Source: an uncultured Owenweeksia sp. (GTDB lineage Bacteria > Bacteroidota > Bacteroidia > Flavobacteriales > Schleiferiaceae). From it: a DNA stretch of 64,000 nucleotides. A program made the position numbers and the translations under genes. Shown in pieces: positions 2,894-22,843 of the stretch (position 1 is its first letter; each line of letters begins with the position of its first letter). The DNA lies in the NCBI GenBank assembly GCA_937146805.1, contig CAKZRR010000003.1, positions 6,332 to 70,331 of the forward strand. Reading direction: 5' to 3'. The notes below the pieces were generated by a model. The model did not search any database. It had not been told where the DNA came from and saw only the letters and a program-made list of their open reading frames with translations.

Positions 2894-3970
2894 ATGGCGC
2901 TAAAAATTCTTTTCATATCACGAGCAACTTTGTTTAACCAACCTGGTGGAGATACTGTACAGGTTGAACAAACAGCCGCTTACCTGGAAAAGCTAGGCCA
3001 CCAAGTACATATTCAAACTGGAGCTAAACCAAACCGCAAAGGGCCGTTTGACATAGTCCATTTTTTTAACCTTATTAGACCCGCTGATGCGCGTTACTGG
3101 CTCCTAAGAAAAGTACCTTTTATAATAAGTAGCATTTACCACGACTATAGTGAATTTGATCAAAAACAACGAAAAGGTTTAGCCCATTTATTATTCAGCC
3201 TTTTTGGAAAAATGGGAGTTGAATACTTTAAAACCATCGCTCGCTGGCTCAATAAAACAGACCAATTTCCAGGAATCAGATACCTTGTTAAAGGCCAAAA
3301 GCGCAGTATGCAAGAGTTGTTAGTAAAAGCCCAAGCGCTTGTTACTACCTCGCAGCAAGAAATCAATCTTATTAAAAATGACCTAGGTTATGTACCCCAT
3401 TGCCACATAATTCCGCTTGGCTCAGAGCACATGACTCCGCCAATAGATGCTCTCGAAAAACAAGGAGTATTTTGTGCCGCTCGCATTGAAGGTGCTAAAA
3501 ATCAGCTACAGCTCATACATGCTGTACAAAGTACCTCACTAACCCTACGCCTAAGCGGTAATGCAGCTACCAACCAAAGTGAATACTACGAACGGTGTAA
3601 AACAGCGGCTTCTAAAAGTGTAACCTTCTTAGGTAGGATTGATAAAGTAGCATTGCAAAACGAATTTGCCAAAGCCAAAACACATGCCCTTATTAGTTAC
3701 TACGAAACCACCGGTCTCTCTACACTGGAAGCCCTAGCTAATGGCTGTCAAGTAGTTATTACCAATCGTGGTGCTCAACCCGAAATATTTGGCGAGCATG
3801 CTTTTTACTGCGACCCCGAAAATATTAATACTATTAAAGAAGCACTTTTAAAAGCCAATGAAAGTAATATTTCGCATCAAAATTGGGTAAAAGAAAACTT
3901 TAGCTGGGTTAAGGCCACTCATAAAATTTCGGATATTTACAAGCAGCTTTTAAACGAACCAAACAAGTGA
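2894..3970 (+). CDS. Glycosyltransferase family 4
   Basis: GT-B fold motifs: GGDTVQV, ARIEGAKNQ, E-x7-E (ETTGLSTLE). Confidence 0.9.
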   Translation: MALKILFISRATLFNQPGGDTVQVEQTAAYLEKLGHQVHIQTGAKPNRKGPFDIVHFFNLIRPADARYWLLRKVPFIISSIYHDYSEFDQKQRKGLAHLLFSLFGKMGVEYFKTIARWLNKTDQFPGIRYLVKGQKRSMQELLVKAQALVTTSQQEINLIKNDLGYVPHCHIIPLGSEHMTPPIDALEKQGVFCAARIEGAKNQLQLIHAVQSTSLTLRLSGNAATNQSEYYERCKTAASKSVTFLGRIDKVALQNEFAKAKTHALISYYETTGLSTLEALANGCQVVITNRGAQPEIFGEHAFYCDPENINTIKEALLKANESNISHQNWVKENFSWVKATHKISDIYKQLLNEPNK

Positions 3971-5055
3971 GAATAGGGATTATAGGCACCCGTGGAATTC
4001 CGAATTATTACGGAGGATTTGAAGAATGTGCCCAGCAATTGGCGGTGCGCTTGGTGGGCAAAGGTCATAAGGTTTGGGTGTACAATTCGCATCTTCATCC
4101 TTATTCGCAAAAATCGTTTGAAGGCGTTGAAATCATTCACAAATACGACCCCGAACATAAGGTAGGTACCTTCGGCCAGTTTGTTTACGACCTCAACTGT
4201 ATTATTGATTCGCGCTGGCGTAGGTTTGATATTATTTTAATGCTGGGCTATACCTCCAGCAGCATTTGGCAACGATTTTTACCTAGCAAACCTGTGGTAA
4301 TAACTAACATGGATGGCATGGAGTGGAGACGTAGCAAATACAGCCCAAAAGTGCAGCAGTTTTTACGAAGAGCCGAAAAGTGGGCTGCTAAGGGCAGTAG
4401 CCTACTAATTGCAGATTCTAAAGTGATTGAGGAACACCTTAACAGATTGTACAAAACTCAAATTATACACATTGCCTACGGGGCTCAAAAATTTAAGAAC
4501 CCTGATGAAGAAGTGTTGCAAAAATTTGGGGTAGAACCTTATAGCTACAATTTAGTAATTGCTAGGCTAGAGCCCGAAAACAATATTGAGTTGGTATTGG
4601 CTGGTATTCAAAAAAGTCAAAGCCAACGGGTAACATTAGTGGTAGGTAATCATGAAACCGAGTACGGTCAATATCTTAAAAATACATACCGGGACAGCCG
4701 TATTCGATTTATTAAAGGTATTTACAACAAATTACACATTACCAACTTGCGTTACTATTGCCACGTGTTTTTTCATGGGCACAGCGTGGGTGGCACCAAT
4801 CCCAGTTTACTGGAGGCAATGGCTTGTAGCAGTATGATTTGCGCGCATGACAACCCCTTTAACCGAGAGGTTTTAGGTGACAATGCTACCTACTTTTTAG
4901 ATTTAAATGATATTGCCAATGCGGCCGATCTAATGGAGCGAAATTCCATTCAAAAAGAAAAAATAAAAGCGAATCTTCAAAAAATTAAGGACACCTATAA
5001 TTGGGATTTGGTAACCGATCAATACGAATTGGTATTTCAACAGGCGCTTATCTAA
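3967..5055 (+). CDS. GT4 glycosyltransferase with DUF1972 (Cps2T/WchF-like)
   Basis: IGTRGIPNYYGGFE, NMDGMEW, ARLEPENN, HGHSVGGTNPSLLEAM; GTGA overlap with the upstream gene. Confidence 0.9.
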   Translation: MRIGIIGTRGIPNYYGGFEECAQQLAVRLVGKGHKVWVYNSHLHPYSQKSFEGVEIIHKYDPEHKVGTFGQFVYDLNCIIDSRWRRFDIILMLGYTSSSIWQRFLPSKPVVITNMDGMEWRRSKYSPKVQQFLRRAEKWAAKGSSLLIADSKVIEEHLNRLYKTQIIHIAYGAQKFKNPDEEVLQKFGVEPYSYNLVIARLEPENNIELVLAGIQKSQSQRVTLVVGNHETEYGQYLKNTYRDSRIRFIKGIYNKLHITNLRYYCHVFFHGHSVGGTNPSLLEAMACSSMICAHDNPFNREVLGDNATYFLDLNDIANAADLMERNSIQKEKIKANLQKIKDTYNWDLVTDQYELVFQQALI

Positions 5056-6440
5056 GCTTCGCTTTTAAACCCCTTAAATACCTGAAAAACGGTAAGCATT
5101 ACAATTTTTAAATCTAGAAGCAAGGACCAATTTTCAATGTAATAGACATCGGCTTGCACCCTTTTCAGCATTTGTTCGGTGGTACCTGTTTCTCCTCGGT
5201 AGCCTTTAATCTGTGCTAAACCTGTAATACCAGGCTTGGCCAAATGGCGCACCATATATTCATTTACCAAAACACGGTACTGCTCAGTATGTGCTAGCAT
5301 GTGGGGTCTGGGTCCAATTACCGACATATCTCCCTTTAAGACATTAAAAAATTGTGGTAATTCATCTAAACTGTGTTTGCGGATAAACCTACCAAAAGCC
5401 GTAATCCTGTTATCTAAATTAGTTGCTTGCTTTAAATCGGCCTCAGCATTTAACATCATGCTTCTAAACTTGTAAATGCTAAAACCATCATCTCGTAGGC
5501 CACTTCTTTTTTGTTTGAAAAATACCGGACCTTTGCCCGATAATTTTACACCCAAGGCCAGCAAAGGAAATAAGATGGGAAACAGAAAAACAATTATGGA
5601 TAGTGAAAAAATAACATCAATCCCTCTTTTTAACCAGCGATTATGCAATAATTCCAGAGGTTCTTTTCGCTGCACCAAAATGGGCACATCATGGTGATAA
5701 TCAATGGCTACGCTAGTAGCGTGATGTACGCCTAAATCAGGTACTATTCTAAAACGTAGCATATTTTCATCTGCAAATTTATACCACTCCGAAAAATTCT
5801 TCTCGCGCTCAGCATAAGCACAAAACAACTCTGCTACCTTATTATCTACTATAAAATTAGCTGCTTCTTTTTCACTTCCCTTTAAGGGAATACCAACAAT
5901 CGGGTTATTTGAAAAATAACCAACCACTCGTAACCCAAACTCGGGATGATCCAACACCGACTGATAAAATGGCACCAAAGCGGGTCCGTTTCCTATTAAA
6001 ACCACCGACCTAAAATTGGTGCCTCGCCTACGGGCGGCTATTAAAAAACGTAAAAAATAAAAACGCCAAGGCAATATGGTAACAAAAAAGCTCGCATAAA
6101 AGTAAATAAGAAAAAGGCGAGAATACTCGTCCTTTTTAAGGCTTACGAGCAAAAGCAGTAAAATAAAAAAATGCAGACTAAAGGCATTCAAAACCTTGGC
6201 GGTTGCCTTTCGAGGCACCAAAGTTCTTTTGGTATCGTAGGTTTTAAAAAGCAGCGATAAAAAAAGCCATGAGATGTTAAAGAAAACCGCCAACTGTACG
6301 TAATAATCGTAATACTGAGTATTTTGAAGTTTAATCTCATCAAAACGAAACGCCAACGCAAGCAAAAAGCTGCCATTTAGCAATAGCAAATCGCCTAGCA
6401 CAATAATAAATTGAAAAAACCGAGCGTAGCGTGAGTGCAT
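5052..6440 (-). CDS. wcaJ: Undecaprenyl-phosphate glucose phosphotransferase (priming transferase)
   Basis: N-terminal TMs, CoA-binding-like domain, Bac_transf motifs KFRSM, SLDELPQFFNV, GDMSVIGPRP, KPGITGLAQ. Confidence 0.88.
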   Translation of the reverse strand: MHSRYARFFQFIIVLGDLLLLNGSFLLALAFRFDEIKLQNTQYYDYYVQLAVFFNISWLFLSLLFKTYDTKRTLVPRKATAKVLNAFSLHFFILLLLLVSLKKDEYSRLFLIYFYASFFVTILPWRFYFLRFLIAARRRGTNFRSVVLIGNGPALVPFYQSVLDHPEFGLRVVGYFSNNPIVGIPLKGSEKEAANFIVDNKVAELFCAYAEREKNFSEWYKFADENMLRFRIVPDLGVHHATSVAIDYHHDVPILVQRKEPLELLHNRWLKRGIDVIFSLSIIVFLFPILFPLLALGVKLSGKGPVFFKQKRSGLRDDGFSIYKFRSMMLNAEADLKQATNLDNRITAFGRFIRKHSLDELPQFFNVLKGDMSVIGPRPHMLAHTEQYRVLVNEYMVRHLAKPGITGLAQIKGYRGETGTTEQMLKRVQADVYYIENWSLLLDLKIVMLTVFQVFKGFKSEA

Positions 6441-11055: not shown

Positions 11056-11063
11056 TATATTTG
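11056..11063 (+). promoter_or_regulatory. -7 promoter box upstream of wzm
   Basis: TATATTTG, identical to boxes at 44419, 58687, 58642(-) and 61982; overlaps the annotated GTG. Confidence 0.5.
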
Positions 11064-11920
11064 TGCAAAATCACAACAACATCGCAAAGCAACCCACACC
11101 TCACACACGTATTACTGCAAAATCACCATCGCTGGGTGCTAGTTTAGCAGAGGTTTGGCGCTATCGCCAATTGCTCATTACCTTTGCTAAGCGCGATTAT
11201 AAAGTTCGCTACGCACAAACCCTTTTAGGTTTTAGTTGGTCATTTATTCAACCTCTGGCCTCGGTAGTAGTGCTGTATTTTATTTTTCAACGGGTAATGA
11301 AAGTACCTACGGGTAACATTAGTTACCTACCCTTTGCGCTAAGCGGCCTCATTTTTTGGAACTACTTTCAATCTGTGGTTACTCAGGCTTCCGCATCGCT
11401 TATAGGTAACCAAAGTATTATCCGTAAAATCTATTTCCCTAGGCTTACACTACCTCTTTCGCGAGCCATTGTAACGTTGGTAGAGCCCTTGGTAGCTGCC
11501 CTTTTGTTTATTATTGCCTTATTGTATTTCAATGAGGGCTCTTGGTTTGCGGCACTTAGCTTTATCCCATTATTAGCACTTACGGCATTAGCAGCTCTAG
11601 GTTTAGGTTTATGGAGCAGCGCACTTTCAATACGCTTTCGTGATTTACAGCAAGCGATACCTTTTGCCCTGCAAATGTTGTTCTTTGCCACACCCATTGC
11701 TTACTCCAGCTCGCTGTTACGTAAAATTTCACCTGCAAATGCAGATTACCTTTTATACCTCAATCCTTTAACAGGCATTATTGAAACCTTTCGCCACCTA
11801 GTATTTGGCACCAACCTATCTCCGCACGTTTGGATTTCGGTGCTTTTAGCCTTTTGCCTATTTGCTTCGGGACTGATTTATTTTCAAAAAGTAGAACGCA
11901 AAATTGCCGATATTGTATGA
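11063..11920 (+). CDS. wzm: Polysaccharide ABC transporter permease
   Basis: EVWRYRQLL..FAKRDYKVRYAQT.LG..W..IQP, KIYFPR, RFRDLQQ, LNPLT; start codon uncertain. Confidence 0.92.
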   Translation: MQNHNNIAKQPTPHTRITAKSPSLGASLAEVWRYRQLLITFAKRDYKVRYAQTLLGFSWSFIQPLASVVVLYFIFQRVMKVPTGNISYLPFALSGLIFWNYFQSVVTQASASLIGNQSIIRKIYFPRLTLPLSRAIVTLVEPLVAALLFIIALLYFNEGSWFAALSFIPLLALTALAALGLGLWSSALSIRFRDLQQAIPFALQMLFFATPIAYSSSLLRKISPANADYLLYLNPLTGIIETFRHLVFGTNLSPHVWISVLLAFCLFASGLIYFQKVERKIADIV

Positions 11921-13086
11921 TGCCTGCCATTAAGATTAGAAACTTATCTAAGCACTATCGAATTAAAGGCCCTAAAAAGAAAGAGCAATTTGAAGCCTTG
12001 CGCAATATCAATTTAGATATTGAGAAAGGTAAAGTTACGGGCCTAATTGGCCCCAATGGAGCAGGTAAATCAACACTCTTAAAAATTCTATCTCGCATTA
12101 CACTGCCCAGCACCGGCACCATTGAAATTGAAGGAAGACTGGCTTCTTTGTTAGAGGTAGGCACCGGTTTTAATCAAGAGTTAAGTGGCCGCGAAAACAT
12201 TTATTTAAACGGTGCTATATTAGGCATGAGCACCGCAGAAATTGATGCTCAGTTTGATGAAATTTTAGCCTTTTCGGGAGTAAATAAATTTATAGACACA
12301 CCTGTAAAACACTACAGTAGTGGCATGTATGTACGGCTGGCTTTTTCGGTAGCTGCGCATCTTCAGTCTGATATTTTATTGATAGATGAAGTACTGGCCG
12401 TTGGCGATGCTAATTTTCAAAAAAAATGCCTAGAAAAAATTAATGAAGCTACACAAGCCAATCGTACCGTAGTTTTTGTTAGCCATAACATGAGTATTGC
12501 GCGTACCCTCTGTGACACACTGGTTTACCTTAAAAAAGGAGAAGTTGTAAAAAAGGGAAATAGTGACGAAGTAGCTGATTTTTATCTTAAAGAATCCACC
12601 GAAGTAGCTAAAAAAGTGGCCGTATCCGACCGCATCGACCGAAAGGGAAATGGACAAGCTACGTTGCAAGATTTAAGTTGTCACCATCAAAACATGAATG
12701 GTGTTTTAACAACAGGTTTGTCTGCAAATTTTGTTAGCTGTTTACAAATAAACACCACTCATCAAGAGGTAGATGTAGAGCTACGTTTAAACATTTTTAA
12801 CACTCACGGGCAATTTTTAACCACGCTTAATAATAAACTGAGCGGGCACTTGTTTAAAACCGAAAAATCGGAGGTGTCTCTTAATTGTTCTATTAAAAAA
12901 TTACCCTTAATGCCTGGAAGTTATACTATTAAGGCCAAGGTAAATGTTAATGGCATTCAAGCAGATGTATTGGATAATGCTTATACGTTTAAGGTTTTAG
13001 AAGGCGATTTTTACGGCAGTAAGCAATGGGATAAAAAAAGAGTGCCTGGCGTATTTATTGACCAGCATTGGGGTATCGAAGCTTAA
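11917..13086 (+). CDS. wzt: Polysaccharide ABC transporter ATPase with C-terminal Wzt_C carbohydrate-binding domain
   Basis: GPNGAGKST, LLEVGTGF..ELSGREN, YSSGMYVRLAF, IDEVLAVGD..FQKKC; C-terminal Ig-like LMPGSY domain; ATGA overlap with wzm. Confidence 0.93.
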   Translation: MMPAIKIRNLSKHYRIKGPKKKEQFEALRNINLDIEKGKVTGLIGPNGAGKSTLLKILSRITLPSTGTIEIEGRLASLLEVGTGFNQELSGRENIYLNGAILGMSTAEIDAQFDEILAFSGVNKFIDTPVKHYSSGMYVRLAFSVAAHLQSDILLIDEVLAVGDANFQKKCLEKINEATQANRTVVFVSHNMSIARTLCDTLVYLKKGEVVKKGNSDEVADFYLKESTEVAKKVAVSDRIDRKGNGQATLQDLSCHHQNMNGVLTTGLSANFVSCLQINTTHQEVDVELRLNIFNTHGQFLTTLNNKLSGHLFKTEKSEVSLNCSIKKLPLMPGSYTIKAKVNVNGIQADVLDNAYTFKVLEGDFYGSKQWDKKRVPGVFIDQHWGIEA

Positions 13087-13855
13087 CCAAGGTGTCCTTG
13101 ATTTTTTGCTTACACTTTACATACGTAAGATAAGATTTAGCCCCACGCTGCATTTTTTCAAAGGCTATACGGGCATCTTCGTATAAATCCATATCCAATT
13201 GGTTCAATGCCTCAATTTGTGTTCTATAAGTTGTGATTAGCTCAGCTGCTTCGCCTGGCGACTTACCTCTATTAAGTCTTTTATAGCTTGTTTTTGGCCA
13301 GTTCAACTGACGGCACATTAACCAAACGCTGTCTTCAAAATACTCGGTAATACCGCAAAAAGCAATTCTATTATGCAGCGTATCTAGGGCATCCTTTTTT
13401 AACGTGACGGTATTGGCCGTTTCAGCGGTAAGTCCTCGCACACCACCCAAAAATTGAGATTGTGCATTAAAAGCAAGATCTGTTTCCAGAAACTCCTCAA
13501 AGGTTATCCATCCCCTCTCCTTTTGTCCTGAAAGTGTGTTTTTGGCATTTTTAAAATGGAGAAATTTGGAAACCGTATGTTCCACGGGGTTTCGTAAAAA
13601 TGTAAGCCACTCGTAGTTTTTAGCTAGCTCAAACTCATTAAGCATTTGAGTTTTTAAATGACCATATATCAAACACTTATCTTCGTTTAAAGCTTGCGAA
13701 AAACGGTTTTTAACCACCTCATACACAGAGCCATAACATTCACTACGATGTTGTTTGGCATAGTTAGAGAAAACCACCGTACGCAAACTTGTGCCGGCTG
13801 TTTTAGGGTTATGTAAAAAAATTATTTTCCTTTGAGACAAATTCAAAACACACAA
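13055..13855 (-). CDS. Sulfotransferase (Sulfotransfer_2-like)
   Basis: FLHNPKTAGTS 5'-PAPS loop, TFLRNPV 3'-PB motif, LNQLDMDLYE tail. Confidence 0.85.
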   Translation of the reverse strand: MCVLNLSQRKIIFLHNPKTAGTSLRTVVFSNYAKQHRSECYGSVYEVVKNRFSQALNEDKCLIYGHLKTQMLNEFELAKNYEWLTFLRNPVEHTVSKFLHFKNAKNTLSGQKERGWITFEEFLETDLAFNAQSQFLGGVRGLTAETANTVTLKKDALDTLHNRIAFCGITEYFEDSVWLMCRQLNWPKTSYKRLNRGKSPGEAAELITTYRTQIEALNQLDMDLYEDARIAFEKMQRGAKSYLTYVKCKQKIKDTLVKLRYPNAGQ

Positions 13856-14515
13856 TTGTTACCTATACCGCCCCCTTATATTATTATTGGTATGCACCGC
13901 AGCGGCACCTCGTTGCTGGCGAATGTACTCGAAAAATCAGGAATTTTTATGGGCGCGCATAAAGATCATAATTACGAGTCAATTCCTTTTTTAAGCCAAA
14001 ATCAAGAATGCCTATGGGCAACCAATGCCAATTGGCTGGAACCCAAAACACCTAAACCCGAACATTACACACCTTACTCTAATGCTTTTTTGTTTTACCA
14101 GCATTTTAAGGCGCATGGTAGATGGGCACAGCTAAAACTGCATTGTAAAATTGTTAGCTGGGGCTGGAAAGATCCGAGAAATACTTTTACGTTACCCATG
14201 TGGCTTGGCCTGTTTCCTAGAGCTCGAGTTATTCATATACATAGGCAGCAAAAGGACGTAGTGAAGAGTTTACAGCAACGAAATCATAAAACAGGCGAAG
14301 TACAAGACGAGCGCTTAAATGATTTGGGTTTTTGCCAGAATTTGCATCAACAATACATAGATGCCGCCAATAGCTACCAAGATTTAGGAAATAGATATTT
14401 TGAATTGACATATGAAGATTTAATACAGGCTAAGGCAGAAACTATTAGTGCCTTGGAGCATTTTACAGGCAAAAAAATCTTGAAAAACTTACAGGAAACC
14501 GTTCATACAAAATAA
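13832..14515 (+). CDS. Sulfotransferase (Sulfotransfer_3-like)
   Basis: IIIGMHRSGTS PAPS loop, WGWKDPRN, TYEDL; alternative TTG start at 13856. Confidence 0.85.
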   Translation: MRQIQNTQLLPIPPPYIIIGMHRSGTSLLANVLEKSGIFMGAHKDHNYESIPFLSQNQECLWATNANWLEPKTPKPEHYTPYSNAFLFYQHFKAHGRWAQLKLHCKIVSWGWKDPRNTFTLPMWLGLFPRARVIHIHRQQKDVVKSLQQRNHKTGEVQDERLNDLGFCQNLHQQYIDAANSYQDLGNRYFELTYEDLIQAKAETISALEHFTGKKILKNLQETVHTK

Positions 14516-14574
14516 GCCTTTAGCCCCCACTTTTTTAATTACTTTGCACCAAAGCTCACTCGCTAAATTTTACA

Positions 14575-15603
14575 ATGCCACAAGTTTCGGTTATTATTCC
14601 TAATTACAATCACGCAGATTTTCTACGCCAGCGTATTGAAAGTGTTTTGGCTCAAACTTTTACAGATTATGAACTCATCATTTTAGATGATTATTCTCCC
14701 GATAATTCTCGTGAAGTAATTGCAGAATATGCTAGCAAACATCCGCAAATAAAAACCGTGTTTAATGAACAAAATTCGGGTAGCCCTTTTGCCCAATGGA
14801 ACAAAGGTTGTGAACTAGCGAAGGGCGAATACTTATGGTTTGCAGAGAGTGATGATTTTTGCGAACCCAAATTGCTAGAAACGCTGGTGCCTTTGTTAAA
14901 TAAAAATGCAAACGTTGGCATTGCCTATGCTCAAACCTATTTGGTAGATGAAAAAGGAGCGGTTAAAAACAGCTATCTCAAAAACCTAGATTTTATCTAT
15001 AAAAACGATACTTGGCATACCCACTTTATTAAAAACGGAGCTGAAGCCTGTAAAGAGTGGTTGCTTTTTCATAACCCAATACCCAATGCCAGCGGGGCAC
15101 TTATACGCAAACGAAATTTTGTGGAAGCGGGAATGGGGGATGCCAGCATGAAGTTAAATGGAGATTGGTTTTTATACGCCAAAATTTTGGCCGAATCGGA
15201 TTTGGCGTTTAGCAACGAACACCTAAATTATTTTAGGGTTCACGACCGTACACAAAGACAAAGAGCTAAAGTAGATGGAACGGTATATTTAGAAATTATT
15301 AGAATAAATGACTTTATAAGAGAGCACATAAAAGATAGTAAAACAAATGCCGATTTGGCTTTGCGGAAAATTGCTGATTGGTGGATTGGAAGTATTCCTA
15401 GGCAAAAATGGACAGTCGGAAATTTCCAAATCAACCGTCAGCTTTATGGAGTCTTTAAAAAGTATCGCGGCTGGGTTCTTTTTCACATTTGTTATACTTA
15501 TATCCTATTAACCGCTCGCAAAGTATTGTACCATTTAGGTCTATTAAAAGTGGCCAAAACTGCTCGTTTCAAAATGTTTCCGGGCAAATACTTTACACAC
15601 TAG
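14575..15603 (+). CDS. Glycosyltransferase family 2
   Basis: VSVIIPNYNH, ILDDYSPDNS, AESDD (DxD), GDWFLY. Confidence 0.92.
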   Translation: MPQVSVIIPNYNHADFLRQRIESVLAQTFTDYELIILDDYSPDNSREVIAEYASKHPQIKTVFNEQNSGSPFAQWNKGCELAKGEYLWFAESDDFCEPKLLETLVPLLNKNANVGIAYAQTYLVDEKGAVKNSYLKNLDFIYKNDTWHTHFIKNGAEACKEWLLFHNPIPNASGALIRKRNFVEAGMGDASMKLNGDWFLYAKILAESDLAFSNEHLNYFRVHDRTQRQRAKVDGTVYLEIIRINDFIREHIKDSKTNADLALRKIADWWIGSIPRQKWTVGNFQINRQLYGVFKKYRGWVLFHICYTYILLTARKVLYHLGLLKVAKTARFKMFPGKYFTH

Positions 15604-15605
15604 TT

Positions 15606-16457
15606 ATGATCTCGGTTGTTGTTCCCATTTATAATGCAGAAAAAACGCTGGATGCTTGCCTACAAAGTATAAGCACTCAACTTTTCCTTCCTAAGCAGGT
15701 AGTTTTAATAAACGATGGGAGTACGGATAACAGCTTGGTAATCTGTGGGGAATGGGCCAAAAATAAAGACTTTGAAATAATTATTTACAGTCAAGAGAAC
15801 AAAGGTTTAGGTGCTGCGCGCAACAGTGGTATTTCACGTTGTTCTCAAAAGTGGGTAGCATTTTTAGATGCGGATGACATTTGGAATGAGTACAAGTTAG
15901 AGCTCTGCCATAGCCACTTGCTTCAGCAAGATTGTGATGTATTATACCACGAGGTAAACTCATTTGGGCTTGGCACCGAAAAAAAACGTGCCGCCTGGCC
16001 CATTAACAGCCTGCAAGATCTTTTATTAAAGGGTAATCCCATTTTTCCATCCGCTGTAGTTGTCAAAAAATCCAATCTTCTGGATCACCCCTTTCAAACC
16101 AATCCACAGTTTCATGGTGCCGAGGATCTGTATCTTTGGATTGAACTTTTAGAAGATGGTAAAATTTTTGATTTTATGAATCAGGCGCTTTGCCAATATC
16201 GAGAAAGTGGAGGAATGAGTACCCAGCTCGAAAATCATTTAGAACACGTACAAAATGTACTGAATCATTTTTTAGAGAAAGCTTACTTTACTCAAATAGA
16301 ATTGAAGCAGGCCTGGCAACGCAAAAACTATGAAGCCGCTAGGTTTTATCATAAACGCGGGCTATTTAAACAAGCCAAAAAACACTATAGTTTAACTAAC
16401 AGCAGCCTAAAAATTAATACACTGCAATTTTTGGGTAGACTTAAAATTAAGATTTAG
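15606..16457 (+). CDS. Glycosyltransferase family 2
   Basis: MISVVVPIYNAE, INDGSTDNS, AFLDADD, AEDLYLW; ATG 2 nt after the previous stop. Confidence 0.92.
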   Translation: MISVVVPIYNAEKTLDACLQSISTQLFLPKQVVLINDGSTDNSLVICGEWAKNKDFEIIIYSQENKGLGAARNSGISRCSQKWVAFLDADDIWNEYKLELCHSHLLQQDCDVLYHEVNSFGLGTEKKRAAWPINSLQDLLLKGNPIFPSAVVVKKSNLLDHPFQTNPQFHGAEDLYLWIELLEDGKIFDFMNQALCQYRESGGMSTQLENHLEHVQNVLNHFLEKAYFTQIELKQAWQRKNYEAARFYHKRGLFKQAKKHYSLTNSSLKINTLQFLGRLKIKI

Positions 16458-18381
16458 CTTTTTTATTTAATTCCAAAAAACCGAGGTAAGCCTGAATAAA
16501 AGCGGCTTCCCCTCTAGGATTGATACTTTCGATATGATCTAGCAAAGGTTTCATATCAGCTGGACGATTACGCACCAATTGCTGCAATGTAAAACTCATA
16601 TGTTTTGCAAACCTAGGATCGGTAGTTTTAGGGTTAATCATTACCAGCTCTCTAAAGGCCTGGCGGTAACTTTCTTCGGTAATTAAAAACTCTGTTTTAC
16701 CATAAATGGCCAACTCAAATCTACTTGAAATAGCTAAAGCCTTATCATAATACTCAAAGGCCATTTTTCGATTTTTCTGGGTTTTATAAATATTCCCCAT
16801 TTGCACTAAAGTGATAATGTTGTAAGGATGAATCTCTTCAGCATACAAACCATCTTGTAAGGCAGGTTGCATTTGCTGCTGAACTAGTTTAGCCATAGAG
16901 CTGTAATACGGTAATGGATTAGCATAACTATCCATATTGTAAAAGGCATTTACCGCACTTTCGGCCGCAGGTATCAACTTTTGAGCATTGCGCTCCGCGT
17001 TACCCTGCAGTACTATAGCGCTGTACTTTTCGCCACTAATGCGATAATTACTCACTATAGCCGAAAAGCTCACAAAAACCAACACCAATACTACCAGCAC
17101 TTTTGAGTTAACGTTTACCTTCGATTTCTCGGCTTGATTTCGATACAAAAGCGCAATAAGCAACATCAAAATAGTTGTATGAGGAGTTCGCTCTAAGGGG
17201 AAATCTGTAAGCGAAAAAATAAGGAAGGAAGAAAACCCAAAGCCTAGTATTAAATCTACCCCCAACTCAGAGGAACTCTTAGCACCTTTTAAATTCTTAA
17301 TCCATCTGGCGAAAGCCAAAATAAAAAATGCCAAGTAAAAAAGTAAGCCCAAAGGGCCGGTTTCGGCCAACACCCATAGGTAATCATTGTGGGGGCGCTG
17401 TACGTGGGTAATACCCTGAGAAACTGGATAAGACAATCCATCTAAACCGTACTTCGGGAAGTTTATTTTCCAGTTACCAAGGCCAACCCCTAAAACGGGA
17501 TGCTCCTGCACCATCTCCATACTATTTTTCCAAAAAATAAATCGTTTGTCCAAGTTAGTGCTATCGGAAACGGATTGTTTAACAGAACCTACACTAAATA
17601 ACAACACCAACATGGCCACTACAGCCATGCCTGAAATGGCTAACCATTTTAAAGGGAACTTCACCTCAAGTGCTTTTCTATTTGAAAAAACATAAAAGCT
17701 TAGAACGGTTAATCCGGCTGCACCAAAAGTAGCCACCCACACACCACGCGTTCGTAAAACAAAAATTTCTAAGAGCAGTAGAGCAGTTAAAGCAGCAGAT
17801 ACTTTTTTGAGCCACCCGTCATGAATTATAATACCCATTATGCTAAAGGGCAAAGACAACATTAAGGCCGAAGCCAACAGGTTTTTATGTCCAAAGCGGC
17901 CAGTTACCGCGTAAATATCTTCTAAAAATTGACCGTTATTTAAAGCCTCAATCAAATTGGCTGCAGCCGAAAGTGAAGCTATACCTCCAAAAATAAGCAT
18001 GGCATTGAGCACATTTTTAAAGTTTAACTTTTTTGCTTTTAGAAGCAACATGCTGCTCAACAACACCGAAAACATAAGCAGGTATCTACTGAGTGTAGCC
18101 CAACTTTCGGTGCTGTTAATGGCTTGACTGATAGAAAGAGCACCTACCAGTAAAAAAGCAAAAAAAGCAATTTGCAATCCTCCTATGGCCCAGGCAAACT
18201 TTTTCTCCCGAAAAACAAACAGAACCGCCAAAGCTAAAACAGCCAAGGAAACAAGCATTTGCCTAGGCACTAAATTAAAATCTACCAAATTGGTCATTTG
18301 CACAATTGGCAAAAATGCCAACATTGCTATTGTTATAAAGCCATAAACGGTTGTGGAAGATTTTTTAGCCGCCATTATCAA
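16447..18381 (-). CDS. O-antigen ligase / oligosaccharyltransferase-like (Wzy_C) membrane protein with C-terminal TPR region
   Basis: Multiple TMs, TRGVW, R..FW..S..M...HPVLGVGLGNW, RPHNDYLWVLAETG; TPR-like helices AFEYYDKALAIS. Confidence 0.85.
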   Translation of the reverse strand: MIMAAKKSSTTVYGFITIAMLAFLPIVQMTNLVDFNLVPRQMLVSLAVLALAVLFVFREKKFAWAIGGLQIAFFAFLLVGALSISQAINSTESWATLSRYLLMFSVLLSSMLLLKAKKLNFKNVLNAMLIFGGIASLSAAANLIEALNNGQFLEDIYAVTGRFGHKNLLASALMLSLPFSIMGIIIHDGWLKKVSAALTALLLLEIFVLRTRGVWVATFGAAGLTVLSFYVFSNRKALEVKFPLKWLAISGMAVVAMLVLLFSVGSVKQSVSDSTNLDKRFIFWKNSMEMVQEHPVLGVGLGNWKINFPKYGLDGLSYPVSQGITHVQRPHNDYLWVLAETGPLGLLFYLAFFILAFARWIKNLKGAKSSSELGVDLILGFGFSSFLIFSLTDFPLERTPHTTILMLLIALLYRNQAEKSKVNVNSKVLVVLVLVFVSFSAIVSNYRISGEKYSAIVLQGNAERNAQKLIPAAESAVNAFYNMDSYANPLPYYSSMAKLVQQQMQPALQDGLYAEEIHPYNIITLVQMGNIYKTQKNRKMAFEYYDKALAISSRFELAIYGKTEFLITEESYRQAFRELVMINPKTTDPRFAKHMSFTLQQLVRNRPADMKPLLDHIESINPRGEAAFIQAYLGFLELNKKAKS

Positions 18382-18585: not shown

Positions 18586-19107
18586 TTGCTTCGTTTATTA
18601 ATTATGCTGGCGATTTTTGCGCTGGCAGTTTGGGCTATCAATAAATACGTAATTAACCTTTCGGAGGTAGTTACTTGGATGGACGCCCGTGTGCCTCAGT
18701 GGGTAATTATTGGCATTCTTTTTATCAGCGAAAGCTTTGTAGGGCTGCTACCTCCCGATGCCTTTATTGCTTGGGCCAAAGCATTTAATCACCCTTACCT
18801 TATGGTATTGATTTTGGCCTTTGCCTCGTATATGGGAGGCGTAGTATCTTGGGTTACTGGCACTCAGCTACACAGATTAGCTCGGGTAAAAAATTATGTA
18901 GACGTAAAGTTTGCTGAGCAATTTTTAACCTTTAAAAAGTACGGAGGCATGGTTATTTTTATTTCAGCCCTTACCCCATTGCCTTTTTCGCCTATAAGCG
19001 TGGTAGCAGGCGTAGTAGGCTACCCTCTAAAAAGCTACTTATTGGTGGCTCTAGCACGTTACATTCGTTTCTTTTTATATGCCTACTTTATTTTTCAAGT
19101 ATTTTAA
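18586..19107 (+). CDS. DedA/YqaA (VTT) family membrane protein
   Basis: SESFVGLLPPD, KYGG...FISALTPLPF, RYIRF; frame is open further upstream (see findings). Confidence 0.82.
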   Translation: MLRLLIMLAIFALAVWAINKYVINLSEVVTWMDARVPQWVIIGILFISESFVGLLPPDAFIAWAKAFNHPYLMVLILAFASYMGGVVSWVTGTQLHRLARVKNYVDVKFAEQFLTFKKYGGMVIFISALTPLPFSPISVVAGVVGYPLKSYLLVALARYIRFFLYAYFIFQVF

Positions 19108-20566: not shown

Positions 20567-22843
20567 CTATCTAATGAGCAAAACATGCCCCTTTAGTTCT
20601 TGGGGCCCAACCTTGGCCACATAAAAATAAGTCCCATCTGAATGGTTATTCCCCGTCCAACAATCACTAGGATTATTACTCTTAAACACATTCACGCCCC
20701 AGCGGTTGTAAATATTTAACTCAAAGCATTGCGAAAAACCTTCACTACTTTCTACATAAAAGCAATCGTTCAAACCATCCCCATTAGGTGTAAACACATT
20801 TGGCACTACCATCGATTGACCTTGTGTAGTATCCACAACTAACACTTTGCTAACCGTGCCTTGGCAACCTGAATTGCTTTCTATATCCAACGTTACTGTT
20901 ACATTTCTTCCATTCTCCATCTCCAAAAAAGTTGACTCATCATTACTAAACTCTTTGCCCTCAATTCGCCAACTATAATATTTCGCACCAACCGTTTGAT
21001 TATCCAGCTGCACAACTATGCCTTTACAACTTACTTGAAAGGAATAATCAAAAACTACTTCAGGAGCTTGTACAACCTCTATTTGAACACTATCCGCACC
21101 AAAACATCGAGTAACATCGTTTACTTTAATCCAATATTTTCCAGGCAATAAATATCTATGAGATATTCCTACTCCACGCTCTGCCGCAATTTGCTGTACG
21201 GTATCAGACCCATCTCCAAAATTCCAATACCAACTGGTATTCCTACCCACATTTGGGTATAATGTAAAACTTTCACCTACGCATAAGAGATCGTTAAAGT
21301 CCCTAAACTTTACTTTCCTTCCCTCTGTCTTTTTTATATAAAACGAAACCGAATCTTGAGGTATTGGGCCGCTTTCTCCTAAACAATAACCATATGCCGG
21401 CATATCAAAAAAGTTTTTTGTTTTTTTCATATAACTAAAATGATAACCCGTAAAACCCTCAGCCGAAGTCTCTAAAACATGAGTATTGTCATCAATTTCT
21501 ATTTCAGCATAACTCCATGCAGGATGGCTTGCATAGGTTTGCCAAACACTTGGTTGTAAAACTTGCCCATCTAAAGTAAAAGAGCCTGTCGATTGAGTCG
21601 GTGTATAAAGTGCCACCATATGAGATACTCCATAATTTCCAATAAAGGGTTTTAAAACACTTCGTTTTATTAACTCATTACTACCGGCTACGTTTATGCT
21701 AAACCCTGAAAACACCGAGGAGTTAAGTCTTGTAGAGTCCAATACCCAAGGTGTATTACGAGTAAGCATTAATTGCACCGGTTTACTAGCTGTAATTACC
21801 GCCTCGCCCAACCAACAAGTATCTAATTGATAACTTTTGTTGCGCCAACCAATTAACTGACCGTTTATAAAAATAGCGGTACTATCATGTAATGCCATAA
21901 TACTATAAAGACTTGCATGATGATTTAACATTTGATTGACTAAGAACATAGTATCTCCAACGGAGTTAGGCTTAACCTGCTCGTAGGTCTCTTTTCTCAT
22001 TGTAGATCGTGCAGAGAAACTGGAACAGTCTCCCCAAATATTGCTAGGCGTTCCTGCAAAAAGCAGAATAGGTTTATTTAAACCTTTTACTGTGCTACCA
22101 GAGTAACTTCGATTTTTGAGCTTAACGGATAATAGGGTATCGTATTCAGAATAGCTATGGAACGCATCACCCGATTCCATTTGTGGATAAAAAAATGTAT
22201 CAACCGTTAAGGGAGTTAATGAAAACGGGGTTGTCGATTTACCGTTTAAACGTATTGCCACTTGGGCAGAATCAAACGGTGTATAAGCCCAAAACTGCAT
22301 GGCTCGATGTTGGTTGGTTAATGCACTTGGGAGACCTTTCCGCATGAAGTTAGGCCCTGTTAGCCAATAATCTTTTTGAGCTGCAATTAAAGGCCCAATA
22401 GCCGTTGCTTCCGTATTTACACAATCAGTTTGATGAGCAGCGTATCCTCCCAACGAATCTAACCTGTTAATATCCGTAGCCTGTACCACTTGCACTGGAA
22501 ATTTACTTTTAACCGTTACACCTAAGGGCAGCACTCGACCAATAACCCCAGTATAATGAGGTAACTTCACTAATAACACGCTGTCCTTTTCAAGCCAAAA
22601 ATCAAGTCTAAAACCTATTTCAGGCACCTCCACAAAACCGCAGGTTGGGGTGGCCGCGGTAATCTGTACCACACGCTTTCTTGGCATACCACTCCCTGCA
22701 ATTCCATCAACCCCTAAGTAAGGGAATGAAAAATTAGTACCCGCACTGAAAAAAGGGGTGTTCTGAGCTTGTAATCCGAGCGAAAGAAATAGAAAAACCC
22801 CTATCCCAAAAAAGGATAGAGGTTTCATATTTAACAAATCCAT
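20567..22843 (-). CDS. T9SS type-B-CTD secreted protein with IgGFc-binding-like N-terminal domain and PKD domains
   Basis: Signal peptide; IMALHDST.IFING..ITASKPV (IgGFc_binding-like); WNFGDG PKD; C-terminal VPNVFTPNGDGLND...IYNRWG...DGTYFY. Confidence 0.85.
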   Translation of the reverse strand: MDLLNMKPLSFFGIGVFLFLSLGLQAQNTPFFSAGTNFSFPYLGVDGIAGSGMPRKRVVQITAATPTCGFVEVPEIGFRLDFWLEKDSVLLVKLPHYTGVIGRVLPLGVTVKSKFPVQVVQATDINRLDSLGGYAAHQTDCVNTEATAIGPLIAAQKDYWLTGPNFMRKGLPSALTNQHRAMQFWAYTPFDSAQVAIRLNGKSTTPFSLTPLTVDTFFYPQMESGDAFHSYSEYDTLLSVKLKNRSYSGSTVKGLNKPILLFAGTPSNIWGDCSSFSARSTMRKETYEQVKPNSVGDTMFLVNQMLNHHASLYSIMALHDSTAIFINGQLIGWRNKSYQLDTCWLGEAVITASKPVQLMLTRNTPWVLDSTRLNSSVFSGFSINVAGSNELIKRSVLKPFIGNYGVSHMVALYTPTQSTGSFTLDGQVLQPSVWQTYASHPAWSYAEIEIDDNTHVLETSAEGFTGYHFSYMKKTKNFFDMPAYGYCLGESGPIPQDSVSFYIKKTEGRKVKFRDFNDLLCVGESFTLYPNVGRNTSWYWNFGDGSDTVQQIAAERGVGISHRYLLPGKYWIKVNDVTRCFGADSVQIEVVQAPEVVFDYSFQVSCKGIVVQLDNQTVGAKYYSWRIEGKEFSNDESTFLEMENGRNVTVTLDIESNSGCQGTVSKVLVVDTTQGQSMVVPNVFTPNGDGLNDCFYVESSEGFSQCFELNIYNRWGVNVFKSNNPSDCWTGNNHSDGTYFYVAKVGPQELKGHVLLIR

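Follow-up and report, generated by a model that had tools for sequence, protein, structure and literature searches.

A conserved locus for a sulfated surface glycan in Owenweeksia and its relatives, and a possible sulfate cap read by Wzt

This work concerns a stretch of 64,000 nucleotides (the window) from an uncultured Owenweeksia sp. of the Schleiferiaceae (GenBank assembly GCA_937146805.1, contig CAKZRR010000003.1, positions 6,332 to 70,331). In it the genes of an ATP-binding cassette (ABC) glycan exporter, wzm and wzt, stand beside two sulfotransferase genes, here called ST1 and ST2, and two glycosyltransferase (GT) genes of the GT2 type. Many bacterial surface glycans have their length set by a quality-control step, export gated by a carbohydrate-binding domain (CBD), and the original prediction was that sulfate might be the chain-terminating signal read here. 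We are confident that the locus encodes a complete ABC-transporter-dependent pathway, conserved in its lineage, by which a sulfated surface glycan is made and exported. The narrower proposal is that a sulfate ester, added by ST2 to the non-reducing terminal sugar, is all or part of the epitope that the CBD of Wzt reads before export. We hold it tentatively, as the best single explanation, and give it slightly less than an even chance; sulfate would then take the part played by methyl, phosphomethyl or 3-deoxy-D-manno-octulosonic acid (Kdo) in known systems. What is new here is the family-wide conservation, the full enzyme complement and the pocket signature. The genes at the centre of the argument are these:

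11063..11920, plus strand: Wzm, ABC-2 permease (Pfam ABC2_membrane, 56 bits)
11917..13086, plus strand: Wzt, nucleotide-binding domain (residues 1 to about 230) and C-terminal CBD (about 242-389) (Pfam ABC_tran 79.5 bits, Wzt_C 37.1 bits)
13055..13855, minus strand: ST1, variable accessory sulfotransferase of 266 residues, Sulfotransfer_2 / heparan-sulfate-6-OST-like (Gal-3-O_sulfotr 27.6 bits, Sulfotransfer_2 23 bits)
13832..14515, plus strand: ST2, conserved sulfotransferase of 227 residues, Stf/TPST-like, candidate capping enzyme (Sulfotransfer_3, 75.4 bits)
14575..15603, plus strand: GT2a, glycosyltransferase with a hydrophobic C-terminal tail, probable chain builder (Glycos_transf_2, 112 bits)
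15606..16457, plus strand: GT2b, glycosyltransferase, probable second chain builder (Glycos_transf_2, 108 bits)

The exporter is the firmest part of the argument. The ATG of wzt at 11917 overlaps the wzm stop codon (ATGA) and the pair is translationally coupled. Wzm is the sole ABC2_membrane match across the source genome; its top NCBIfam match, with a score under the cut-off, is the galactan export permease Wzm/RfbD. The Wzt_C match covers Wzt residues 242-362, exceeds the Pfam cut-off of 30.4 bits and is the only one in the genome. An AlphaFold2 model of the C-terminal 164 residues, made with an alignment of 17 orthologues, reaches a pLDDT of 88.8, and its best 12 Foldseek matches in the PDB are all Wzt CBDs (TM 0.58-0.74), those of E. 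coli O9a (2R5O), R. terrigena (5HNO/5HNP) and A. aeolicus (6O14/8DKY). The C-terminal jelly-roll is an authentic CBD in its fold. Both the predicted carbohydrate-binding domain and the predicted exporter pathway with a cap-reading type of Wzt are thus supported. A defence-system reading was rejected; PADLOC gave generic P-loop ATPase models for Wzt and none for the sulfotransferases.

Both sulfotransferases match a family profile and contain the 5'-phosphosulfate-binding loop, and the Pfam matches bear out that two sulfotransferases dependent on 3'-phosphoadenosine-5'-phosphosulfate (PAPS) and two GT2s lie beside wzt. The prediction had treated the two sulfotransferases alike. Both are indeed present, but ST2 is the conserved partner and ST1 a variable accessory. 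In 15 ST2 orthologues the motifs GMHRSGTS and WGWKDPRN are unvarying, and its relatives in the PDB are the mycobacterial Stf-type enzymes 2Z6V and 2ZQ5 plus TPST; its true start may be the TTG at 13856. ST1 carries the PAPS-loop motif HNPKTAGTS, its two Pfam scores barely exceed their cut-offs, and its closest PDB match is the heparan sulfate 6-O-sulfotransferase 5T03. The gene identities of the predicted layout stand, but the strands need correcting: ST1 is on the minus strand, convergent with wzt and divergent from ST2. The longest open reading frames (ORFs) of ST1 and ST2 overlap by 24 bp at their starts (13832-13855). With no room for a promoter between them, each gene must have its promoter inside the other. 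Among the scanned ORFs from 34 to 22843 there is no methyltransferase or kinase domain and no known cap-forming enzyme (methyltransferase, kinase, Kdo transferase).

It is important to realize how widely this arrangement is kept. Loci, genomes and contigs that must be told apart are given with the letters L, G and C. Every one of the 10 genomes of the genus has a full-length Wzt orthologue, as do 10 of the 14 other family genera searched. The order wzm, wzt, [ST1], ST2, GT2a, GT2b, ligase is kept in congeners, in other genera and in other families, and it recurs in metagenome-assembled genomes (MAGs) of Cryomorphaceae, Schleiferiaceae, Croceimicrobium and Phaeocystidibacter; loci outside the local genome set were found with the ST2 alignment. 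The same order in all ten congeners and in other genera and families means the arrangement is not chance. ST2 accompanies wzm, the CBD-bearing wzt, GT2a and GT2b in 10 of 10 congeners and in other genera and families, and of the orthologous loci found only L038 lacks it. The genes for the initiating phosphoglycosyl transferase (PGT), ligase, wzm, wzt, ST1, a second ST1, ST2, GT2a, GT2b, GT4b and GT4a are contiguous in L035, which belongs to a different family. Apart from this duplication, ST1 homologues are 26-36% identical and absent in L024, L045 and L051, and in L033 and L034 the slot holds a Sulfotransfer_1-type gene. The module is conserved next to housekeeping genes and in this is unlike a serotype-variable O-antigen locus. 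The genome G001 also has a second, different wzm/wzt locus (L036:8549-10650) with a sulfotransferase directly beside wzt, among DegT-type amino-sugar genes, and another such second locus, again with a sulfotransferase directly beside wzt, lies at G011:C10:36230-38706.

The pocket of the CBD is where the cap would have to be read. In A. aeolicus the pocket for the 3-O-methyl cap consists of Leu300, Thr346, Ala348 and Trp362, and Asn313 binds the ring oxygen (PMC9445017). HMMER and MAFFT alignments, anchored on the PGxY strand, agree on the equivalent positions in the window Wzt, as follows (positions in alignment A1):

Position 65: A. aeolicus Gly298, window R290
Position 67: A. aeolicus Leu300, window N292
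Position 80: A. aeolicus Asn313, window N305 (conserved)
Position 114: A. aeolicus Thr346, window K339
Position 116: A. aeolicus Ala348, window K341
Position 118: A. aeolicus His350, window N343

These six are the putative cap-pocket residues of Wzt, and their basic and polar character fits an anionic ligand such as sulfate, not a methyl group, as far as an alignment can tell. We counted Arg, Lys and His at positions 65, 67, 114, 116 and 118 in 95 CBDs. Sulfotransferase-adjacent CBDs average 1.55 such residues (at least one in 30 of 31), methyltransferase-adjacent CBDs 0.33 and all others 0.65, a weak statistic in that the module CBDs form one clade, the clades are not independent, and position 65 was added to the set after the Arg of the window had been noticed. 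CBDs linked to FkbM methyltransferases mostly have Trp at 80 and Tyr or Phe at 116 (5 of the 8 nearest wzt), as would be expected for CH-pi contact with a methyl group. The five CBDs at L124, L125, L131, L161 and L164, next to FkbM-type methyltransferases, share this pair, which may be a signature of methyl-cap-reading CBDs. Two loci were picked for a basic residue at 116. In L168, a post hoc choice, a weak sulfotransferase comes directly 3' of wzt, which fits a rule of basic pocket and anionic group; in L166 wzt is followed by an acetyltransferase and an asparagine-synthase-like gene, and there is no sulfotransferase. The only CBD outside the sulfotransferase group with Arg at 65 is that of L182, where a polysaccharide pyruvyl transferase lies one gene from wzt (L182:7049-7987 and L182:8922-10118, Bacteroidia); this enzyme, too, adds an anionic group and so fits the rule. 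That Arg is equivalent to R290, and a pyruvate-ketal cap read by the CBD is a candidate explanation there.

The functional unit is larger than the predicted 11917-16457. The genes within that interval are as described, but wzm, a ligase and a block upstream (2894-6440) must be added, the block being separated from wzm by pepN and recG:

2894..3970, plus strand: GT4a, glycosyltransferase, probably adaptor-forming (Pfam Glycos_transf_1, 69.5 bits)
3967..5055, plus strand: GT4b, glycosyltransferase with DUF1972, probably adaptor-forming (Pfam DUF1972, Glycos_transf_1 and Glyco_transf_4)
5052..6440, minus strand: WbaP-like initiating PGT (Pfam Bac_transf, 216 bits, and CoA_binding_3)
16447..18381, minus strand: WaaL-like ligase (Pfam Wzy_C, 74 bits) with a C-terminal TPR domain
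18586..19107, plus strand: DedA/VTT-family membrane protein, membership of the unit uncertain (Pfam VTT_dom, 45 bits)

Enzymes for primer (PGT), adaptor (two GT4) and polymerase (two GT2) accompany the CBD-bearing Wzt across genomes, and their linkage survives rearrangements. GT4a is syntenic with the module in L024 and L027 and contiguous with GT2b in L035. Orthologues of GT4b (57-73% identity) adjoin the module in L024, L027, L028, L035 and L046, and those of the PGT travel with it in L024, L027, L028, L031, L035, L042 and L046. Orthologues of GT2a are 40-70% identical and those of GT2b 31-49%. The ligase, convergent with GT2b in the window, adjoins the module in every locus, on either side. 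It spans the membrane several times, has a Wzy_C periplasmic loop, weakly matches the WaaL structure 7TPG and ends in a TPR domain of about 200 residues that is absent from solved WaaL; seven further Wzy_C matches occur in the source genome. Candidate acceptors for its glycan are lipid A-core and protein. The DedA/VTT protein beside it may recycle the undecaprenyl-phosphate carrier for the pathway; it has a weak NCBIfam UptA match (E 0.0015, under the cut-off) and its synteny is confined to the genus.

Taken together these genes suggest a pathway. The WbaP-like PGT would prime undecaprenyl phosphate, GT4a and GT4b would add an adaptor, and GT2a and GT2b would build the chain on the cytoplasmic face. 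ST2, with ST1 where it is present, would transfer sulfate from PAPS made by cysC, cysD and cysN elsewhere in the genome, Wzm/Wzt would export the lipid-linked glycan, and the WaaL-like/TPR enzyme would ligate it to its acceptor. The gene identities, the CBD fold, the conservation of the module, the capacity to make PAPS and the residues at the pocket positions are observed; we infer in what order the steps run, that the sulfate is terminal, that it ends the chain and that the CBD binds it. The idea of a sulfate cap is plausible since, beside its enzymes for primer, adaptor and polymerase, the set has no modifying enzymes but the sulfotransferases. It is plausible also since Arg, Asn and two Lys stand at the methyl-pocket positions, where methyltransferase-linked CBDs have small or aromatic residues.

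The supply of PAPS can be accounted for. The prediction noted that no PAPS-synthesis genes lie in the window and proposed that cysC and cysDN be located. The only APS kinase match of the source genome is on another contig, C25, where a sulfate permease, cysC, cysD and cysN follow in order, so the source genome can make PAPS. The genome is 98.9% complete and no sulfite reductase was found in it, so its PAPS is probably dedicated to sulfation. The C25 genes (C25:4854-15402, locus L003) comprise an SLC13-type permease (CitMHS and TrkA_C), then cysC, cysD and cysN, then a Wza/Wzc polysaccharide locus with Poly_export, a GNVR tyrosine kinase, a UDP-sugar dehydrogenase, an epimerase and a sulfotransferase at C25:21357. 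This locus probably makes a second, Wzx/Wzy-type polysaccharide that is sulfated.

How does this compare with known systems? The prediction that Wzt CBDs read methyl, phosphomethyl or Kdo caps agrees with the literature we reached. Our search found no paper joining a sulfotransferase with ABC transporter-dependent chain termination, though the 2019 survey of Mann, Kimber and Whitfield (Glycobiology 29:822) was outside its reach. One of the closest known systems is that of E. coli O9a/O8 (K. pneumoniae O3/O5), with WecA, the WbdC/WbdB adaptor GT4s, the WbdA polymerase, the WbdD terminator and Wzm/Wzt with a CBD. The window shares with it an initiating transferase, two adaptor-type GT4s, chain-building GTs, coupled wzm-wzt, a jelly-roll CBD on the C-terminus of Wzt and small modifying enzymes beside wzt. 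In contrast to O9a/O8, the modifiers of the window are ruler-less PAPS sulfotransferases rather than a methyltransferase/kinase, its initiator is WbaP-like rather than WecA, its polymerase would be two separate GT2s, and its locus is conserved in the family rather than varying by serotype. With the Aquifex aeolicus WzmWzt (3-O-methyl-mannose/rhamnose cap; 8DKY, 8DKU; PMC9445017) the CBD shares its fold (TM 0.63-0.74), the PGxY strand and the ring-oxygen-binding Asn (Asn313, here N305), but the hydrophobic Leu300/Thr346/Ala348 are replaced by Asn292/Lys339/Lys341, with Arg290 adjacent. Terminated, CBD-gated ABC export with caps that are in some cases anionic (Kdo, methyl phosphate) is found in K. 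pneumoniae O12 and R. terrigena WbbB and in K. pneumoniae O4/O7 (PMC11231755). Relatives of ST2 sit at the N-terminus of multi-GT proteins much as in WbbB and K. pneumoniae O7 ORF6, but the sulfotransferase of the window stands alone, and no Kdo transferase or kinase was found with it.

The proposed survey of Wzt_C loci for co-occurring sulfotransferases can be partly answered. Wzt_C matches occur in 205 of 401 genomes of the class, and a sulfotransferase lies within 9 kb in 4 of 60 loci outside the family, a lower bound because at least one weak sulfotransferase (L168) escaped non-iterative phmmer. At 58 of these loci the first two genes downstream of wzt (116 ORFs) are mostly sugar-nucleotide enzymes, GT2s and methyltransferases, and none of their 25 most frequent families is a sulfotransferase family. 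A pooled Pfam scan counts 9 FkbM-type and about 7 class I methyltransferases among them (regex and phmmer recovered about 3 of the 7 class I), so the sulfotransferases of the window occupy slots held by methyltransferases in about a quarter of other loci. More widely, over 540 relatives of ST2 are spread through many phyla and most do not adjoin wzt. In Desulfobacterales, Pseudomonadota and Planctomycetota, however, ST2-family genes lie directly against wzm and a wzt with Wzt_C; in Desulfocapsaceae their direct neighbour is wzm. All four Wzt proteins scanned (L065, L070, L089 and L122) match Wzt_C, that of L122 under the Pfam cut-off; in L122 (Acidobacteriota) the sulfotransferase is 4.5 kb from wzt. 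In two Pseudomonadota MAGs (L070:8402-13692, L084:9050-14479) the operon runs from a MORN-repeat protein through an ST2-like sulfotransferase, wzm and wzt with Wzt_C to a B12-binding radical S-adenosylmethionine (SAM) enzyme, an unusual glycan modification chemistry.

Fusions place ST2-like domains in the same company. About 70 of 120 longer proteins listed with such a domain also carry GT2 domains. In several, an N-terminal sulfotransferase is followed by a proline-free, helix-rich stretch of 100-125 residues (a crude heuristic) and then by GT modules; among the 80 closest ST2 loci there are no sulfotransferase-coiled-coil-GT fusions, which occur only in more distant, longer proteins. One ST-GT2-GT2 fusion lies two genes 3' of a Wzt_C-bearing wzt, amid several methyltransferases. 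Three that we examined (L186:509-12282, L187:2173-7863, L188:4071-11889) are about 1100 residues long, with a sulfotransferase before a helical stretch and then GT4 and GT2 modules, and their neighbours are a bifunctional PAPS synthase, rhamnose genes and a wzm/wzt pair that lacks the CBD. Since Wzt lacks the CBD there, these three give no direct support for the reading of sulfate by a CBD, and if the sulfotransferase terminates the chain, it would do so without a CBD reader. The fusions show ST2-family sulfotransferases at work inside glycan assembly complexes, in layouts that are compatible with termination but no proof of it.

The strongest challenge to a terminal sulfate is that ST2 and ST1 instead sulfate one or both sugars of each repeat in the cytoplasm, giving a polyanionic chain, with the CBD reading either a terminal sugar that one of the four GTs adds or the repeat in its sulfated form. 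We regard this as doubtful but quite possible, and the finding would then be an ordinary sulfated polysaccharide locus. A number of observations weigh on its side and against a terminal cap. In the sulfated bacterial polysaccharide structures that our literature search yielded, one of them an ABC-exported capsule, the sulfate belongs to the repeat units. That capsule, of Cobetia marina KMM 1449 (PMC11766843), resembles the window in its cytoplasmic sulfation, dedicated PAPS supply and ABC export, but its KpsMT has no CBD, its sulfate is on a repeat-unit sugar (Rha2S), its lipid is Kdo-primed and its PAPS genes are within the cluster. The wb(salmo) locus of Aeromonas salmonicida (PMC4483657) has, like the window, a Wzt (438 residues) followed directly by a sulfotransferase-domain protein (216 residues), and no sulfate was seen in the O-antigen structure. 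This locus differs in also having WbbB, elsewhere (K. pneumoniae O12) a Kdo-adding terminator-polymerase, and a sub-stoichiometric sulfate cap could have been missed in the structure. All characterised Klebsiella terminators are part of proteins that carry a coiled-coil ruler (PMC11231755); ST1 and ST2 are both single-domain proteins with no extension and no such ruler. ST1 is closest to an enzyme that modifies a polymer internally, and two sulfotransferases adjoining two GT2s would suit a disaccharide repeat with a sulfate on each sugar. The CBDs, for their part, diverge faster (25-44% identity, vs 50-70% for ST2 and GT2a), which is unexpected beside a conserved ST2 and GT2a if the ligand is constant. 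In one CBD subclade, position 65 is Glu, Ser or Asp, and positions 67 and 116 are His. The limits of the pocket comparison given above belong here too. The absence of a methyltransferase or kinase that the original prediction stressed holds for window ORFs 34-22843 but not for the congener L032, where a class I SAM methyltransferase is convergent with wzt and directly beside it. The genomes G031 and G028 have no sulfotransferase match, though their alignable Wzt proteins have Wzt_C. Finally, L150 and L174 each have a sulfotransferase together with an FkbM methyltransferase, and their CBD pockets are hydrophobic; lying near wzt thus does not always make a sulfotransferase the capping enzyme. 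Internal sulfation, in turn, leaves the CBD without a dedicated capping enzyme although the unit's other roles are filled, and it does not by itself explain the basic and polar pocket, though a CBD reading a sulfated repeat could also carry such residues.

Two other arguments should be considered. The cap might be made by ST1, in the slot convergent with wzt, diversifying along with the CBD, while ST2 makes a conserved internal or adaptor modification. ST1 and the CBD do evolve equally fast (mean identity among orthologues 37% and 35%, vs about 56% for ST2 and GT2a), and the slot varies between ST1, Sulfotransfer_1 and, in L032, methyltransferase types. But in L024, L045 and L051 the slot is empty and the CBD is kept, and ST1-less L024 has the CBD closest to that of the window (44%). 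In a mirror-tree test the CBD distances correlate with every partner (partial r 0.23-0.52), and the value for ST1 (0.47) is not above that for GT2a (0.52); the test does not discriminate between partners. We think a cap made by ST1 improbable. It could also be argued that the sulfotransferases act on a lipid, a small molecule or a protein and came to lie in a glycan locus by historical accident. About nine sulfotransferase matches occur in the genome, at seven other places, and there are ST2 paralogues (38-46% identity) without wzm/wzt or GT2a/GT2b nearby (L054, L056-L060). Yet the order ST2-GT2a-GT2b is kept across families and through rearrangements, and ST2-like domains are repeatedly fused to glycosyltransferase modules, which makes this very unlikely in our opinion.

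A more ambitious idea deserves mention, although we consider it a long shot. Sulfate would be the true terminating export signal, read by a basic CBD pocket, and the family-conserved anionic glycan would be the marine Flavobacteriales counterpart of Porphyromonas anionic lipopolysaccharide (A-LPS), the anchor for cargo of the type IX secretion system (T9SS). The hint comes from a module conserved like a housekeeping glycan and not like a serotype-variable O-antigen. T9SS cargo genes (Por_Secre_tail) lie inside the wzt-sulfotransferase-GT2 module at L031:11370-12983, L032:6283-8472 and L034:8066-9364, in three relatives, and a 15-kb T9SS cargo array starts at 20567 of the window, 250 bp past the aminotransferase gene that closes the syntenic block. 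In genomes rich in cargo genes such insertions may have arisen by chance; alternatively, they may point to a role of the glycan in anchoring T9SS cargo.

The Cryomorphaceae and Schleiferiaceae are common marine bacteria associated with particles and blooms, and we know of no study of their envelope chemistry. We believe the locus defines a conserved, probably abundant sulfated surface glycan of these families. If sulfate is the cap, it would widen the chemistry of the CBD export checkpoint and tie that checkpoint to the sulfur metabolism of marine bacteria. It would also give a sequence rule for telling the type of cap from genomes, in which a basic pocket means an anionic cap and an aromatic pocket a methyl group.

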